Of a DNA stretch of 64,000 nt, positions 1 to 49,019 are shown one piece after another. The stretch's first letter is position 1. The number at the start of each line of letters is the position of its first letter. The stretch is taken from IMG/VR virus record IMGVR_UViG_3300022879_000002, positions 1 through 64,000 of that record; one strand, written 5' to 3'. The position numbers and the translations under genes are program-made. The notes beneath the pieces are model-generated. The model was given only the letters and a program-made list of their open reading frames with translations. It had not been told where the DNA came from and did not search any database. The stretch comes from a virus.

Positions 1-1844
1 AATTCTGCAAATGCTTCAGATACTATTTTCGCCTGTTTGCTGATCTCATCAAAGTAGTTAATTTTAATATCAAATTCTTGTTTTACTTTTATTAAACCAT
101 TTATATCTTCCGTAACTACAGGAGAACGCCCCATTATAGAAGATATAACTTCATTTAAGTCATCTGAAGCACTGTCATCACTAGCTTTGTCACCCTTGAT
201 ATCAGACAATCCAACTTTAAGCATCATACGAATTTCCCCATCCTTGTTGATATAAATATTTGAGAATAAATTATCCAACATTTGTTTCTTCACTCCTATT
301 GGCGCACTATCAAATACATGTCCAAACTTTATAGCTAATTCCATAAACTCTTCAATGTTAAATGCCTCACCTTGATCTTGAATAGATTTTTCTTCTAATG
401 TCGAATAAAATTCTTTCATATCATTCAATTCATGTAAAAGCACTTTTTGCTTTTTCAAATAAACAACTTGCAAATCTAAGTCATCATCTAATTCAGATAC
501 AAGTTCAGTAATGTTATCCAATTTTGTTTTTAATTTATCGATATCCTTTTTTACTTTGTCTGCTTCAGAGGTGTAAGTAAATTTATCTGCTTCTAATTTT
601 AGTTTTATTGTTTCTATCATATCTGGTTTAATTAAATGTTGAATTTTATCTTTAGCAATATCAACAATGATTTTCTCTAAAACTTCTTTTCTATACAAGG
701 TATTATGTGGACAATTTTCTTTCCTTGATGATCGTTTATTACGACAAGTATAATAAGAAAATTGTTTTTTAGTACCTTTGGGCTGAGATGTGACAACAGT
801 CATTCGCTCTCCACATTCAGAACAGTACACTAATCCTGATAGTAAAAATTGAGTATTTAGTGATACTCTTTCTTTTGTACCTGATTTTCTTTTTTCATAA
901 GCATCATTAATCTTCTTCTGTCTCACTTCTGAACGACAAACTTCAATTAGCTCCGACTTCTCAATTACACGATCTAAATCGGGATTCATTTTACTTTCAT
1001 ACGAAAAGTGACCTGTATAAATTGGATTAAAAAGTATGGTATGAATATTTTTGTGATTCCATTCATCTACTGTAGACTCTTCTATTCGTATAGGTTTAGG
1101 TATTGGTTCAGCAAGTTGATTTTTACCTCTAATTTTCCCACCATTAAGATATTTTGCAATTGAAAGCATACCTATTCCTTCTAAATATAAATCTTCTACT
1201 AATTCAATTGTTTCTTTCGCTCTTGGTAGTAATTCTAATTTATATTCTCCTTTCCCAAACGTATATCCTATTGGTGCGCTTCCACCTGTAAACTCTCCCT
1301 TTTTAGCTTTCATCAGCATGGTATCAGAGACACGAGTTGCAGTTGTAGCACTTTCCATTTCTGCAACCATAGACATAACAACTTCCATCATTTTAGATGC
1401 TCCTGCAAACTTAAACGCTTCTAAATCTACCTGTTGTTCACCTGAAGCAGATAGATAAATATCTACATTGTAGTCTGCTAGAAATTGGAGAAACCCTATA
1501 TACTCCATTGTGTTACGGAACATTCTATCTCGTTTATATGCAATAACATAATTAATTTTCCCATCTCTTATGTCTTGCATTAACTCTTGAATAACATTTC
1601 GATTCTCAATTCTTACCTTTCTAGCTGAAACCCCTTCTTCTACATACGGTTTATAAATTAAGCCCTTGATTTGTTTTGCATGGTTGTTTGCAAGATCCAT
1701 TTGCATCTCTAGAGAGTCACCATCTTCAACTTGCATGTCAGTAGATACTCGTATTAATACTGCAATTGTGATTGTATTCTGTTCGATGACATTAGAGTTC
1801 TTTAATGTTTTGTTATATTTATTTTTAGTCGAAAACAAAGTCAT
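1..1844 (-). CDS. Large serine recombinase (SprA-like phage integrase), 3' end beyond window
   Basis: Manually translated; absent from ORF track because no stop in window. ATG 1844, MTLFSTKNK...IAVLIRVSTDMQ (catalytic Ser), VIAYKRDRMFRN, GGSAPIGY, Zn ribbon LLSGLVYCSECG...YYTCRNK...CPH; open to position 1 (>610 aa). Confidence 0.93.
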   Translation of the reverse strand, partial: MTLFSTKNKYNKTLKNSNVIEQNTITIAVLIRVSTDMQVEDGDSLEMQMDLANNHAKQIKGLIYKPYVEEGVSARKVRIENRNVIQELMQDIRDGKINYVIAYKRDRMFRNTMEYIGFLQFLADYNVDIYLSASGEQQVDLEAFKFAGASKMMEVVMSMVAEMESATTATRVSDTMLMKAKKGEFTGGSAPIGYTFGKGEYKLELLPRAKETIELVEDLYLEGIGMLSIAKYLNGGKIRGKNQLAEPIPKPIRIEESTVDEWNHKNIHTILFNPIYTGHFSYESKMNPDLDRVIEKSELIEVCRSEVRQKKINDAYEKRKSGTKERVSLNTQFLLSGLVYCSECGERMTVVTSQPKGTKKQFSYYTCRNKRSSRKENCPHNTLYRKEVLEKIIVDIAKDKIQHLIKPDMIETIKLKLEADKFTYTSEADKVKKDIDKLKTKLDNITELVSELDDDLDLQVVYLKKQKVLLHELNDMKEFYSTLEEKSIQDQGEAFNIEEFMELAIKFGHVFDSAPIGVKKQMLDNLFSNIYINKDGEIRMMLKVGLSDIKGDKASDDSASDDLNEVISSIMGRSPVVTEDINGLIKVKQEFDIKINYFDEISKQAKIVSEAFAE

Positions 1845-1908
1845 AATACTACAGCTCCACATTTTATATTTTCTATAACCATTGATTATATTTTATAATA
1901 ACTAGTAA

Positions 1909-32134: not shown

Positions 32135-32761
32135 TTAAGAAACAATTTCACCACTTGAATAGTGATATATGTATTCTCGTACATGTTCTCTAAACATTGT
32201 GACTGTGTAATGCACTGTCCTTGGACTAACTCCGATTAAAGGAGCTACTTCATTTGTTGTTGTCTCTCTGTACATTAATGGGATCAGAAATGGATGGTAT
32301 TTATCGATAACCCATGTTTTTGCGTACTCAATTGCATTATGTAGGTATATATAATCTTTTTTATGTAGAACATCTTTATTTGATACATCCAGAATGTCGA
32401 TTAGCTTACTTCCATCATTATCTAACACATTCGAATCTAGATATGAAAACGAATAACCTGAAGTATCTCTTTTCTTCCTTGTTGCTGCGTTTATGCTTTT
32501 AATCACTTCGTTTCTCATTATTGAGTAACAGTATGTAGAAAATTTACAATTCTTTGATGTATTAAATGTCTGTGCTGCTCTAGAGAAAGCATAATTACAG
32601 TCACTTTCTATATCTTCATTTGTAATTGCTTTTGAGTTCTTAAATAGTTTTTCAACTTCAAATACTAACCCTTTATTTCTTTTGTATAACTCATCAAACG
32701 CTAACTCATTATTATCATTTCTATATAACTCTACTAATTCCTCATTTGTTAATTTATCCAT
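32135..32761 (-). CDS. Sigma-70 family sigma factor, SigH-like
   Basis: LTNEELVELY...AFDELY, EDI, KFSTYCYSIMRNEV...ATRKK, C-terminal HTH EVAPLIGVSPRTV. Confidence 0.8.
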   Translation of the reverse strand: MDKLTNEELVELYRNDNNELAFDELYKRNKGLVFEVEKLFKNSKAITNEDIESDCNYAFSRAAQTFNTSKNCKFSTYCYSIMRNEVIKSINAATRKKRDTSGYSFSYLDSNVLDNDGSKLIDILDVSNKDVLHKKDYIYLHNAIEYAKTWVIDKYHPFLIPLMYRETTTNEVAPLIGVSPRTVHYTVTMFREHVREYIYHYSSGEIVS

Positions 32762-36725: not shown

Positions 36726-36756
36726 GAGAGCTGAATGATTAATTCATTCAGTCTTT
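36726..36756 (-). terminator. Terminator after the repressor gene
   Basis: CTGAATGA...TCATTCAG stem. Confidence 0.6.
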
Positions 36757-36763
36757 CAGTTCT

Positions 36764-37753
36764 CTATATTTTAACCTCAAAATGACCATATTCATCCTGC
36801 ATAAAATCAAAATCCATTGTTTCTCTGATTCGTTGTAATTGAGGATACTCTTTATTATTAGAGGTTATAGTACTCAAATTATATTTTTTAACTAACTCGT
36901 CTACAATGATCAAATCAAAAACTCTCTCTCCTTTTTGATTCATCCATTCATTTGCATAGTACATCATTCCACTAATTTCAATAGTTGTTGCAGTTACATT
37001 ACTATCTTCAAATGTATCCTTTATTCTCTGCATAATGATTGTACTAATCATAGAAGATGTTATACGAACATCATTGTCTTTACCTAGTCTATTTTTTCTA
37101 AAAATGTATTCACCATCAACTAATCGTGCCATTTTCCCACTAGGACTTTTTATTTCTGAAGTATTATAAGTTTTAATTAATAGATCATGAAGTTCTTTAG
37201 ATATTTCAATTTGTCTACTGTCTAAGTTTATTTCATCTGAAAGTACATTTAAAAAGTATTTATCATCTTTTGTAGTAATGTCATCCATTCTTAAATTTCT
37301 TATTTCAGAAAATGATGATCCAACAATTCCCTCAAACAATAGAAGTACAATAACCTTATCCCTGTTGTTATCCAGTAACTCAATTTTATTAAGAAGTTCT
37401 TCTCTTGTGTAATAATGTTTACCTGCGTTCCATACATAAGTAGAAACATACTCATCATTAATTACATCAACAATTGGATGAGTTGGTGAAGTACTATGCC
37501 CATTGTCTATAGCCCATGTAATATAGTTCTTAATAGTGTTGATAAATATAATTGCAGATCTTTTTGTTTGTCTTTTTGCTTGTCTAAATAACAAATCCAA
37601 CATGGAGTTATCCATATCATATAAATCTGTTTCATGTTTTCTTTCAAATGATTCAGTACGATTGAATATCGAGTAGTAAGTTTTCTTAGATGAATCAGAT
37701 AAATTCAATGTTTCAAGAAATGATTTCTTGTATTCCTCGTTATACATAATCAC
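36764..37753 (-). CDS. mrpR: MrpR/YopR-like master repressor (degenerate tyrosine-recombinase fold)
   Basis: MYNEEYKKSFL..., LLFEGIVG...SEIRNL; lacks the catalytic R and HxxR; last gene of the SPbeta-type triplet. Confidence 0.78.
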   Translation of the reverse strand: MIMYNEEYKKSFLETLNLSDSSKKTYYSIFNRTESFERKHETDLYDMDNSMLDLLFRQAKRQTKRSAIIFINTIKNYITWAIDNGHSTSPTHPIVDVINDEYVSTYVWNAGKHYYTREELLNKIELLDNNRDKVIVLLLFEGIVGSSFSEIRNLRMDDITTKDDKYFLNVLSDEINLDSRQIEISKELHDLLIKTYNTSEIKSPSGKMARLVDGEYIFRKNRLGKDNDVRITSSMISTIIMQRIKDTFEDSNVTATTIEISGMMYYANEWMNQKGERVFDLIIVDELVKKYNLSTITSNNKEYPQLQRIRETMDFDFMQDEYGHFEVKI

Positions 37754-39090
37754 TTCACGCCTTTCTTATACATATCTGTAAATAACTTAATCAATGCTTT
37801 TCGGTCTTTAGCATTTAATTTCATTTTCCCACTAACTATCTTGCTCAACTTAGATTCAGTATTATGGAATTCGTTTATATCTATAATATCTTCAATTTTC
37901 TCAAACGGTATATTATCTTCATTCATTAACTTGATTAAATATAGATGTCCTTCAAACACATCAGCATCAAAAAGTAGACTGTTATCACTGACATTATAGT
38001 TTTTATAAATTCCGAATAGGTACACTAGATATTCATTTATTGCTTTTGCAAGCTTTCTTGCGTCTAATATACTGTCTAATTTAAATATATTATTTATTTG
38101 CGTATTAATTATTTTATAAGTAGTAAAATCACTACCTTTTATTGATGACTTAGCATCACTAGCTGATGTTATTCTATTCTTTAGTTGTCCTTCTACTTTT
38201 AAAATATTCACAACTTCATTCGAATATGATTTATTATCTAGTTCTTCAACACGACTTCTTGATAACGGAGTATGTTTGTCTAGATCAACTTGATATCTTT
38301 TAACTTCCGCATCTGACTTATTTGAAATTGTTATTGGGAAAGATCCTTTTATATTAGAGTCTTTATTATAAGCACTATAATTACCTAGTAGTCTATGCAT
38401 ACCGTCTACAATATCTAAAACAGTACCTTCATTAATTTTTAGTGTATTGTTTTTATCATCATAAATAAGTTCTACACCTTCTAAAGCAGTCATCTGATGT
38501 GCATTCAAAGTGATAGTAGTTGGTCTTAGTACACCTTTTAAAATTTCATTTCTTATCTGTGTAATTTTACTTTGATAAATAATAGGTTTTTCAATTTCTA
38601 CACCAAAGCGAACAACTTTCTTCATACCTCGTTGCACATTAGCATTGTAATCCAGTTTACCTGATTTATATAATCTAGCTAATTCTTTTCTTGTAAGGGT
38701 TGCATTGTAATAACCGTCACCTAAATCAGTTACATTATGAATTGTCATTGGGAAATCTATAATATCTGTTGATGAAGAACCTACGAATTGGTATCCTCCA
38801 ATTTCTTTCTGTTCACGTTCAGTGAACCACTCATTCATCCATTCACTCTGGTTCATTCCTAATTTAACTACTAATTGCTGCCCAAATAGCGCAATCTCTT
38901 CAAAATCTAATTTACTTACATTATTAACATTATTAAATAAGGAATAAATCTTAGCACTTTCAATACCATGTTTCATTTTTAGGTGTTCAACAATTAAATC
39001 TACTTCATCTTTGTCTACATTAGATGAGAATGCATTAATTAAACTTTTAACTTCAATCTCTAATTGTTCATTATCTTTACCTAATTTCAT
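37750..39090 (-). CDS. DGQHR/DndB-like protein (YopQ/SroE-like)
   Basis: LDYNANVQRG, PTTITLN, IVDGMHRL. Confidence 0.8.
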   Translation of the reverse strand: MKLGKDNEQLEIEVKSLINAFSSNVDKDEVDLIVEHLKMKHGIESAKIYSLFNNVNNVSKLDFEEIALFGQQLVVKLGMNQSEWMNEWFTEREQKEIGGYQFVGSSSTDIIDFPMTIHNVTDLGDGYYNATLTRKELARLYKSGKLDYNANVQRGMKKVVRFGVEIEKPIIYQSKITQIRNEILKGVLRPTTITLNAHQMTALEGVELIYDDKNNTLKINEGTVLDIVDGMHRLLGNYSAYNKDSNIKGSFPITISNKSDAEVKRYQVDLDKHTPLSRSRVEELDNKSYSNEVVNILKVEGQLKNRITSASDAKSSIKGSDFTTYKIINTQINNIFKLDSILDARKLAKAINEYLVYLFGIYKNYNVSDNSLLFDADVFEGHLYLIKLMNEDNIPFEKIEDIIDINEFHNTESKLSKIVSGKMKLNAKDRKALIKLFTDMYKKGVK

Positions 39091-39153: not shown

Positions 39154-40206
39154 TTACATATTTTTTTGCTTATTTTTTATTTTATTATTTAAAAGTAGAA
39201 GCATTTCTGGTCGCATTTCGTTTAAAGCTTCTAAAAGCAACTCATGTGATACTGTTTTATAAGCATCATCTTCTGTATTCATTTTAGCTGAAATTATACC
39301 TGTTACATTTAAGTTAGTTAACCTTAAATATCTCATTGTTGTATTAACATTACTATGTCTAGCCTTTTTCATTGCAGTATCAATACAGTTGTTATTATTC
39401 AAGTAACACATAGTCACAGCTAATTTTTTAAAAGAGTGGAAAGAATATCTTACTCCAGTCTTATTTATAATTTCATTTCCTCTATCCATCATACCAGTTA
39501 ATTGTTTATATGTTAGAGTGAATAATTTTTGATCATTTCCTAAATCTTTTAATTGTAAAAGTTCTTCATACAATTCTTTATTTATTTTATCTATCCACTC
39601 TTTATTACCTTTTCCTTTATTACTACCATGTGATTTCATTATTACTCCATCTTCAACTACAGTAAAGTTACTCCACTTCAGCTCTAACAACTCTGTAGCT
39701 CTTAATGCTGTCTCAATTGCTAATTTGATTATTAATTGTTTTTCTAACCCTTGATCCTCTCCTTTAAAATAAGAAGAATATTCCATCGCTAAATCAAATG
39801 GTATCATTTCAATCTCTTCTCTTGTATCAGGAAAGAATTTAAGTAGTGATAGCTTATTTACATCATAAGAAATTATATCCCATGCAGCTAAAAACTCAAT
39901 GAACTTTTTTATTACCGAGATGTGTTTATTTATTGTTGAATTTTTGTGCTTCGGTTCATCTTCGTTATTTATTTCTTCATGTAATGTATTGAAGTATTCT
40001 TTTAATACATGTACAGTCATACCTTCAATATCAGAAACAGTTATAAATTTAAAGTCACTCTTATTTAATATATCTTTAAATAATTTATTTAAGCTGCTTT
40101 TATAACTCTTATAACTGTGAATTGAATTTGATTTGTATTCATTTAAGAAAGCTTCAATATGATCATAGATATAATTATCCATCTTAATTGTATTCAAAGC
40201 TACCAC
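39154..40206 (-). CDS. Tyrosine recombinase-family protein (YopP/SroD-like)
   Basis: TALRATEL (R), KGKG (K), FHSFK (HxxK instead of HxxR), ARHSN (H), TTMRY (Y). Confidence 0.85.
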   Translation of the reverse strand: MVALNTIKMDNYIYDHIEAFLNEYKSNSIHSYKSYKSSLNKLFKDILNKSDFKFITVSDIEGMTVHVLKEYFNTLHEEINNEDEPKHKNSTINKHISVIKKFIEFLAAWDIISYDVNKLSLLKFFPDTREEIEMIPFDLAMEYSSYFKGEDQGLEKQLIIKLAIETALRATELLELKWSNFTVVEDGVIMKSHGSNKGKGNKEWIDKINKELYEELLQLKDLGNDQKLFTLTYKQLTGMMDRGNEIINKTGVRYSFHSFKKLAVTMCYLNNNNCIDTAMKKARHSNVNTTMRYLRLTNLNVTGIISAKMNTEDDAYKTVSHELLLEALNEMRPEMLLLLNNKIKNKQKNM

Positions 40207-40238: not shown

Positions 40239-40281
40239 AGTATAAAGGAAAACAAACAACAAGTAAAGTAATTATGTATTT
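40239..40281 (-). promoter_or_regulatory. Promoter TTTACT-17-TATACT with upstream box
   Basis: -10 at 40239-44, -35 at 40262-67, box at 40272. Confidence 0.6.
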
Positions 40282-40464
40282 ATTTTATTAATTACTTTTA
40301 TAAAATGTTCCTTTTATCTAACCTTTTAACATTAACTCAATCTCAATCAATTCCAATTGAACCTTTTTATTCTCGAGAAGAATGTATCAAACTTTGTCTC
40401 TAAAGCTTAAGTGTTTTCTTCTCTTCTTTAATAATATTTTGTATTTGTTATATTAAACATAGAA

Positions 40465-48483: not shown

Positions 48484-48852
48484 TCACTTTTCATTTGTGA
48501 TTTCCCATATTCGTCTTAGTTTGTCTAAGTCTCTTTCATTTAAATTTAAAAGTTCATCATACCAAGTTTGTAATTTTTCATTACTAAACTTACGTTTCTT
48601 TATATGTTCTGACTTTATTTCTTCTGTTTCTATATAGCCTGCTTTAACCATGAGTTCTTCATAACCATAATTATAGGCTTCAGCAATCATTTTTAATGTT
48701 TCTGGAGACGGTTTTACGATACTTCCAGAGCGTTTATCAACACCTTTTTCAAGCGTGTCTAAATATGTATGACTAATTCCAATACGCTTACTAGCATCAC
48801 GTAATGATTCTTTACCTCTAAGCTCTTTTAATAAATTGCCTAATGTATTCAA
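48484..48852 (-). CDS. XRE-family HTH regulator
   Basis: SLRDASKRIGISHTYLDTLEKG...PSPETL..IAEAY; TTG start after RBS GGAGG. Confidence 0.9.
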   Translation of the reverse strand: MNTLGNLLKELRGKESLRDASKRIGISHTYLDTLEKGVDKRSGSIVKPSPETLKMIAEAYNYGYEELMVKAGYIETEEIKSEHIKKRKFSNEKLQTWYDELLNLNERDLDKLRRIWEITNEK

Positions 48853-49019
48853 ATGAATACCTCCTGTAAACATGTGATTACAAATAGTGTATCAGAGAAT
48901 TTTATAAAAGGGAAATATTATCTAATACTATAATAAACCTCTTCAGGAAAATTTTAATAGATTATTATTTTTTATTTGATATACTTACAATGTAACTATT
49001 TACTAGGAGGATTTAGGTA

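Follow-up and report, generated by a model that had tools for sequence, protein, structure and literature searches.

In our reading, the SroD protein of a 122-kb Lysinibacillus phage is an orthologue of YopP of phage SPbeta, is encoded by the first gene of the lysogeny-control module sroDEF, and most likely still cleaves and rejoins DNA; for this reading as a whole we set a probability of about 0.6. The gene lies at 39154-40206 on the minus strand of the window, i.e. the whole stretch of 64,000 nucleotides under analysis, which comprises the first 64 kb of the 121,875-bp IMG/VR record IMGVR_UViG_3300022879_000002, a record with direct terminal repeats at its ends. It adds a further member to the known SroD/YopP family, in a phage without detectable arbitrium genes. 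According to this model, SroD would clamp DNA between its core-binding and catalytic domains, purifying selection would hold the active site R-K-H-K/R-H-Y across the whole family, and the protein would cleave and rejoin DNA at some phage site within its lysogeny role, instead of being a dead DNA-binder like its neighbour SroF.

Fold and active site of SroD

39154-40206, minus strand: sroD/yopP-like gene for a two-domain tyrosine recombinase (350 aa, GTG start)
39700-39702, minus strand: catalytic codon of R169
39610-39612, minus strand: catalytic codon of K199
39436-39438, minus strand: catalytic codon of H257
39427-39429, minus strand: catalytic codon of K260
39355-39357, minus strand: catalytic codon of H284
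39328-39330, minus strand: catalytic codon of Y293

At the level of domain families, SroD matches the phage integrase domain (Phage_integrase, Pfam: PF00589; 2.6e-9, 37.6 bits with a cut-off of 27.1), and its N-terminus is assigned to a SAM-like core-binding domain (Pfam: PF02899); the match to PHROG_1 'integrase' reaches 2.3e-26. NCBIfam yields weak Xer-type matches (37 bits vs equivalog cut-offs of 220-335), and a phmmer search of the PDB with the single SroD sequence returned noise only. A profile of 29 homologues was aligned to the solved structures of XerA (5hxy, 4a8e) and IntI4 (2a3v), the IntI4 alignment spanning just the C-terminal 74 residues of SroD with a weak score. This mapping identifies R169 as Arg-I, E172 as the Glu that follows it, K199 as the first Lys of the beta-hairpin GKGNK, H257 and K260 as the counterparts of HxxR, H284 as His-III and Y293 as the nucleophile. 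The hairpin Lys presumably corresponds to XerD K172. The Arg-II position is occupied by Lys (K260), so the Arg of HxxR is missing. The sequence-only reading had proposed such a nearly complete catalytic set, with Lys for Arg-II, from the motifs LRATEL, KGKG, HSFK, ARHSN and TTMRY; every one of them is present in the open reading frame 39154-40206 on the minus strand, and the profile mapping onto XerA and IntI4 shows the set to be right.

A structure prediction, which had been suggested as a check, agrees: the AlphaFold2 model (pLDDT 84.3) is a two-domain recombinase, for which Foldseek returns Tn1549 Int, Cre and XerH with E-values of 5e-9 to 1e-7 over 300-350 columns; IntI4 and lambda Int are also matched, with both domains covered. 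Like SroD, the enzymes XerA, XerH, Cre and Tn1549 Int (the best structural match) consist of a core-binding and a catalytic domain and have no arm-binding domain. The register R-E-K-H-x-x-(R)-H-Y and the GKGNK hairpin are common to SroD and the Xer/Cre-type recombinases; unlike these, SroD has Lys for Arg-II in its clade, a conserved tail of ~55 residues after the Tyr, and equivalog scores far below the cut-offs. [quoted passage not shown] Judged from these residues, SroD is probably catalytically competent.

The closest point of comparison is SroF (MrpR, YopR; PDB: 8A0A), a protein with paralogous fold from the same operon, which binds DNA by its core-binding and catalytic domains. MrpR/SroF recognizes a long asymmetric box as a monomer and has lost Arg-I, both His and the activity, no recombination having been shown (PMC10516654; 10.1101/2025.11.27.690993); SroF is also devoid of the catalytic Tyr (10.1101/2025.11.27.690993). 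SroD, by contrast, keeps the whole set. That the paralogue at 36764 is short of the catalytic residues had been noticed from the sequence, and a Ser opposite R169 in a weak alignment agrees with this view and with MrpR (PMC10516654). Because hhalign of SroD vs SroF gave a probability of only 1.9% and a single aligned block, the residue loss in SroF rests mainly on the MrpR literature.

Conservation of the active site across the SroD family

In SPbeta and phi3T, SroD (YopP) belongs to the sro operon (yopMNOPQR) and occupies the same place directly upstream of SroE and SroF, with a similar length of ~350 aa and the two-domain integrase fold. The same catalytic pattern is found there, with HxxK in SPbeta YopP and HxxR in phi3T SroD; the proteins align end to end with the SroD described here at 21-23% identity and have the invariant residues in common. 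What differs from SPbeta and phi3T, apart from this low identity, is that the triad here has its own promoter, lacks aimR/aimP and a recognisable sroABC upstream, and resides in a Lysinibacillus host. The order SroD-SroE-SroF is common to SPbeta, phi3T, Geobacillus E3, Psychrobacillus Perkons, Mammaliicoccus phi127 and a Staphylococcus SPbeta-like phage. The SPbeta lysogen expresses yopP, yopQ and yopR, the last of which encodes the master repressor YopR/MrpR (10.1101/2021.11.22.469490, PMC10516654).

With SroE as anchor, 76 IMG/VR loci were collected, most of which have the same gene order, and the gene directly upstream of sroE was taken as the SroD orthologue. The orthologue set comprises 42 distinct SroD proteins with a median pairwise identity of 28% and a minimum of 20%. 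All 42 proteins of this set have R, K, H, H and Y without exception, and at Arg-II 26 have K and 16 have R, with no other residue. Invariance extends to just 10 positions altogether, of which five belong to the catalytic set (chance P ~6e-9). A hidden Markov model of seven SroD proteins gives the syntenic genes 270-490 bits; close homologues, with up to 93% identity, occur in Lysinibacillus genomes. The earlier argument that an intact active site implies an enzymatic job was reasonable, and this conservation strengthens it.

Intergenic palindromes of the phage genome

40300-40317, no strand assigned: palindrome ATAAAA-GGAACA-TTTTAT (minus-strand reading), one of 46 genome-wide sites

The sequence-only reading placed a palindromic site just upstream of the sroD promoter and compared it to attI beside intI. 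The perfect palindrome ATAAAA-N6-TTTTAT is indeed present at 40300-40317, ~33 nt upstream of a -35/-10-like pair at 40267-40239. The comparison with attI does not hold, since this is one of 46 equivalent sites, and sroD is co-oriented with the arrays; relatives show no consistent adjacency, and SPbeta has no such site within ~20 kb of the sro operon. The motif ATAAWA-N6-TWTTAT occurs in 40 copies in the window (4379-61304; 0.59 expected) and in 46 copies in the whole genome. Nearly all copies are intergenic, right after one stop codon and 7-45 nt before the next start. In 37 of the 46 palindromes one ATAAAA arm is paired with one ATAATA arm, giving a mismatch at arm position 5/14 (Fisher P 6e-5), and the sites are found in both orientations relative to the gene. 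The unequal arms and the two orientations argue for a protein-bound duplex site, not for a hairpin or a directional promoter. All 6-bp centres are distinct within the genome, none being reused.

Several identities of the palindrome were considered and rejected. An RNA or DNA hairpin is ruled out by the arm mismatch in 37/46 sites, the stems consisting of six A-T pairs. A sigma-A promoter is ruled out by arms that are 6 nt apart, by the absence of a -35 conserved at 17 nt and by the occurrence of both orientations; a YonO promoter, by the use of one start site for the late operon (PMC5467207). Nor is the palindrome the MrpR/SroF operator (SPBRE): SPbeta aimR, yopM and yopV are without it, though MrpR peaks were mapped there. 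The SroF box published for phi3T is distinct from the palindrome, an asymmetric 26-mer.

As a separate observation, two palindromes of SPbeta (NC_001884.1, 113663-113703 and 132746-132786) overlap the SroF box core (GAATAAAAATAAAAT) by 3 bp and form composite sites. Two further genes of the window may be mentioned here, namely one for a phage-encoded sigma factor at 32135-32761 on the minus strand (Sigma70_r2, 6.5e-8), which is conserved in the relative L008 and might read a repeated motif, and one for an Xre-type helix-turn-helix protein (HTH_3) at 48484-48873 on the minus strand, which is 87% identical in L008 and is a possible binder of a dyad-symmetric site.

Palindromes in related phages

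Five relatives of the Lysinibacillus clade are enriched in the same motif, with 31-39 copies each (controls 0-1). It is likewise enriched in SPbeta (14 copies), phi3T (15), E3 (19), Perkons (9) and the Staphylococcus SPbeta-like phage (11); with 5-bp arms, SPbeta has 34 copies vs 2.4 expected. The centre GGAACA is also found upstream of sroD in the genomes G001 and G003. In the comparison with L008, whose SroD is 90% identical, the region upstream of sroD consists of unrelated small genes with conserved patches of 28-50 bp centred on palindromes, and the homology block of sroDEF starts at 40320, three bases past the 40300 site.

The comparison with G003 (SroD 65% identical) covers the 43 sites in the first 72 kb. 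With a tolerance of up to two mismatches in the arms, 34 of them have a counterpart with the same centre, and 32 of these 34 are collinear. If the exact motif is demanded in both genomes, the centre is shared at 27/43 sites, vs a shuffled null with a mean of 0.9 and a maximum of 6. Around the 32 collinear pairs, ungapped identity is high solely within positions -4 to +21, with background levels beyond; within 450-bp flanks, protein similarity is found on neither side in 18 pairs, downstream only in nine, upstream only in two and on both sides in three. The palindromes are position-specific joints that outlive the surrounding genes. This pattern would fit recombinase sites with heterospecific overlap regions, and equally well regulatory elements that act as homology patches (PMC2839356), as described for the PeSLs of T4-type phages, short conserved regulatory elements which serve as homology patches for recombination.

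A second tyrosine recombinase, YomM

91264-92302 of the full genome (approximate), outside the window (L100:654-1439, L100:1387-1692), plus strand: yomM homologue, frameshifted in an A8 run

The same phages encode a second tyrosine recombinase, YomM of SPbeta, which is annotated there as a site-specific integrase and keeps R, E, K, HxxK, H and Y. Unlike SroD, YomM is encoded in the late region outside the repression operon, and it is far more uniform: its homologues are 57-74% identical across phages of Bacillus, Geobacillus, Psychrobacillus, Staphylococcus, Lysinibacillus and others, vs 20-28% for SroD. The frameshift in the run of eight A in the genome analysed here could be an assembly error, slippage or the mark of a pseudogene. 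No paper on the function of YomM was found. Wherever YomM reaches 57% identity or more, the genome is enriched in the palindromic motif, G006 with 5-bp arms. As a candidate for the enzyme of the palindromes, YomM is at least equal to SroD; neither is established.

Weighing the alternatives

In phi3T and SPbeta, SroD is reportedly an auxiliary repressor (Brady et al., 2023), and the gene stands inside the repression operon. Both points favour a purely regulatory SroD, which would bind DNA as auxiliary repressor together with SroE and SroF, its residues gripping the backbone or stabilising the fold without cleavage; we consider this alternative, for which the sequence-only reading had itself left room, possible but rather unlikely. 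It draws further weight from MrpR, a protein without recombinase activity in which the substitutions K169A and Y304F bring a loss of DNA affinity and stability (PMC10516654): since its retained Lys and Tyr are needed for full DNA binding and not for any chemistry, active-site residues can persist for the sake of binding. SroF, on the other hand, binds DNA well without Arg-I, both His and the Tyr (10.1101/2025.11.27.690993), so binding does not require the set, and the retention of five residues and a K/R-only sixth at 20-28% identity is what would be expected of an enzyme. A catalytically active SroD is therefore the reading that we prefer, and the MrpR precedent is not the only point that weighs against it. 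Its orthology to YopP rests on synteny and profile scores, because identity is 21-23% and tblastn of SroD against 50,697 phage records at 1e-5 did not reach SPbeta, which synteny via SroE did. In several prophages (G021, G031) sroD appears to be broken up by stop codons, which means that some lineages can do without it. The literature consulted yielded no activity data for any SroD, nothing on SroD chemistry was found in papers citing Brady et al. 2023, and our analysis found no candidate recombination site specific to SroD. Integration itself is plausibly covered by the large serine recombinase at 3-1862 on the minus strand, as had been supposed. A role of SroD as a Cre/Xer-like recombinase for multimer resolution or maintenance of a plasmid-like prophage would have a precedent in P1 Cre, which serves an extrachromosomal prophage. 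We regard this role as very improbable: SPbeta and phi3T are phages that integrate into the chromosome, and their SroD is no less conserved; our analysis revealed no unique site of the resolution type next to the gene, which belongs to the repression operon.

The sequence-only reading had proposed SroD as a candidate cassette recombinase. The palindromes do act as joints at which the gene content of relatives differs, but no result of the analysis ties them to SroD. In such an exchange, SroD would bind the 6-bp arms of ATAAWA-N6-TWTTAT and swap strands over the 6-bp centre, an improbable reading; with site-specific centres, only matching positions of two phages would recombine, a natural recombinase-mediated cassette exchange that we hold to be just as doubtful. 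Inverted arms around a 6-bp centre suit the core sites of tyrosine recombinases, the centres are unique within the genome and collinear between phages, conservation ends at the site while both flanks are unrelated at 18/32 sites, and motif enrichment is seen only among genomes carrying a true SroD. Our phyletic comparison of the motif with SroD or YomM covers 43 genomes and is confounded by phylogeny: none of the 11 genomes without a true SroD shows enrichment (11/11), but these form a more distant group, for which reason the co-occurrence of motif and SroD is itself confounded. Against the exchange, the motif remains identical and unchanged while SroD diverges to 20-28% identity, and relatives show no palindrome consistently beside sroD. 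G031 retains 20 palindromes with a broken sroD. Conversely, G019 and G022 (behind the loci L026 and L030) are complete SPbeta-like genomes with SroE and a good SroD match (~264 bits), in which a scan with 5-6-bp arms and 2-10-bp spacers found no enriched palindrome; no YomM homologue was found in them either, and they are useful natural controls. Conserved regulatory elements combined with homologous recombination would give the same mosaic, as in the PeSLs (PMC2839356). Action of SroD on the intergenic palindromes is thus possible but unsupported, and we give it little credence.

Only slightly short of an even chance, in our estimate, is the alternative that the palindromes have nothing to do with SroD and are sites of YomM, or operator-like or promoter-proximal elements of another dimeric protein that act as homology patches. 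For YomM speak its 57-74% identity across the motif-sharing phages, its complete set of R, E, K, HxxK, H and Y, and the enrichment of the motif in every genome with at least 57% identity; against it, G030 and G020 (95-100% complete) have 12 and nine sites and no YomM match, G012, G014, G015 and G032 carry the motif with YomM-like proteins of merely 31-39% identity, and yomM is frameshifted in the very genome that has 46 sites. The alternative as a whole is favoured by the position of the sites 7-45 nt upstream of start codons, by the downstream gene being retained more often than the upstream one (12 vs five of 32), and by the two SPbeta sites that abut the published SroF box core; a plain operator, however, leaves the conservation of the non-consensus central 6 bp between phages unexplained. 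If an enzyme is involved after all, SPbeta-like phages might run an 'addressed' cassette exchange, in which a live tyrosine recombinase acts at 18-bp sites whose private 6-bp centres serve as position codes; this idea is a long shot. The enzyme could be SroD by itself, SroD and its dead paralogue SroF acting as a pair like XerC/XerD, or YomM.

Relation to integrons and PeSLs

The likeness to integrons is confined to a tyrosine recombinase in a genome with short palindromes between small accessory genes. Integron attC sites are hairpins of 57-141 bp, whereas the palindromes described here are 18 bp long, of one type and double-strand symmetric, and there is no single attI. To bind attC, integron integrases also need an extra helix that is specific to IntI. 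Integrons have intI divergent from the cassettes and an attC that travels with its cassette; here sroD is co-oriented, and the sites stay while the genes change. The arrangement that defines an integron, i.e. a single attI beside a divergent intI and one attC per cassette, is not found, and both neighbours change at 18/32 sites. The PeSLs of T4-type phages (Arbiol et al. 2010, PMC2839356) are likewise short intergenic elements amid small non-essential genes at which relatives differ through insertions, deletions and replacements. PeSLs, however, consist of promoter and terminator hairpins and are exchanged by homologous recombination (PMC2839356), whereas the elements here are 18-24 bp long, form no stable hairpin and have a position-specific centre.

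The sroDEF locus and its transcription unit

40272-40281, minus strand: AAATACATAA box, 4 nt upstream of the sroD -35, candidate operator
40239-40267, minus strand: sigma-A-like promoter candidate of sroD (TTTACT, 17 nt, TATACT; consensus scan only)
37750-39090, minus strand: sroE/yopQ-like gene (446 aa; DndB/DGQHR-like, phrog_5732)
36764-37753, minus strand: sroF/mrpR/yopR-like gene (329 aa; PF22822 and PF22823), homologue of the recombinase-fold repressor
36731-36751, minus strand: terminator-like hairpin at the end of the sroDEF unit
3-1862, minus strand: large serine recombinase, presumed integrase (Resolvase, Recombinase and Zn ribbon), extending past the window end

Nearly all genes of the window are carried by the minus strand. 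SroD is encoded by the first gene of the triad sroD-sroE-sroF (yopP-yopQ-yopR), which is bracketed by promoter and terminator; downstream of the promoter candidate come the ribosome-binding site AGGGGG and the GTG start codon. The six-gene operon sroA-F downstream of aimR-aimP is not found: upstream of sroD there are just small unrelated open reading frames, and no sroABC could be recognised. With SPbeta AimR as query, no AimR match was obtained in the 122-kb genome; this is a weak negative, according to which the triad seems to function without arbitrium signalling.

The AAATACATAA box occurs in 61 copies genome-wide, always in the orientation of transcription and often 4-7 nt upstream of a sigma-A-like -35. 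The 39 copies in the window are on the minus strand (e.g. 10360, 26842, 48429 and 63639), and the 22 plus-strand copies lie beyond 64.8 kb. The box may be an operator, perhaps for SroF, whose box in phi3T is also AT-rich and asymmetric, or else a UP-like element.

Implications for SPbeta-like phages

So far SroD has been classed as an auxiliary repressor, next to another repressor whose recombinase fold is dead. Few features of the family are as strongly conserved as the active site of SroD. This conservation argues that the SPbeta lysogeny module holds a working DNA-breaking enzyme. The question is directly testable in the tractable SPbeta/phi3T system. If the palindromes are the substrate, this would explain how phages of 120-160 kb remain collinear while their accessory genes are exchanged, and nature would have its own equivalent of cassette exchange by heterospecific lox/FRT sites. 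If 'addressed' exchange took place, co-infecting phages and prophages would swap accessory genes at matching positions with the gene order left unscrambled, and, were SroD the enzyme, repression and gene exchange would be linked through the lysogeny module itself. If the palindromes are not the substrate, SroD would still be a recombinase that is employed for regulation with its chemistry intact.

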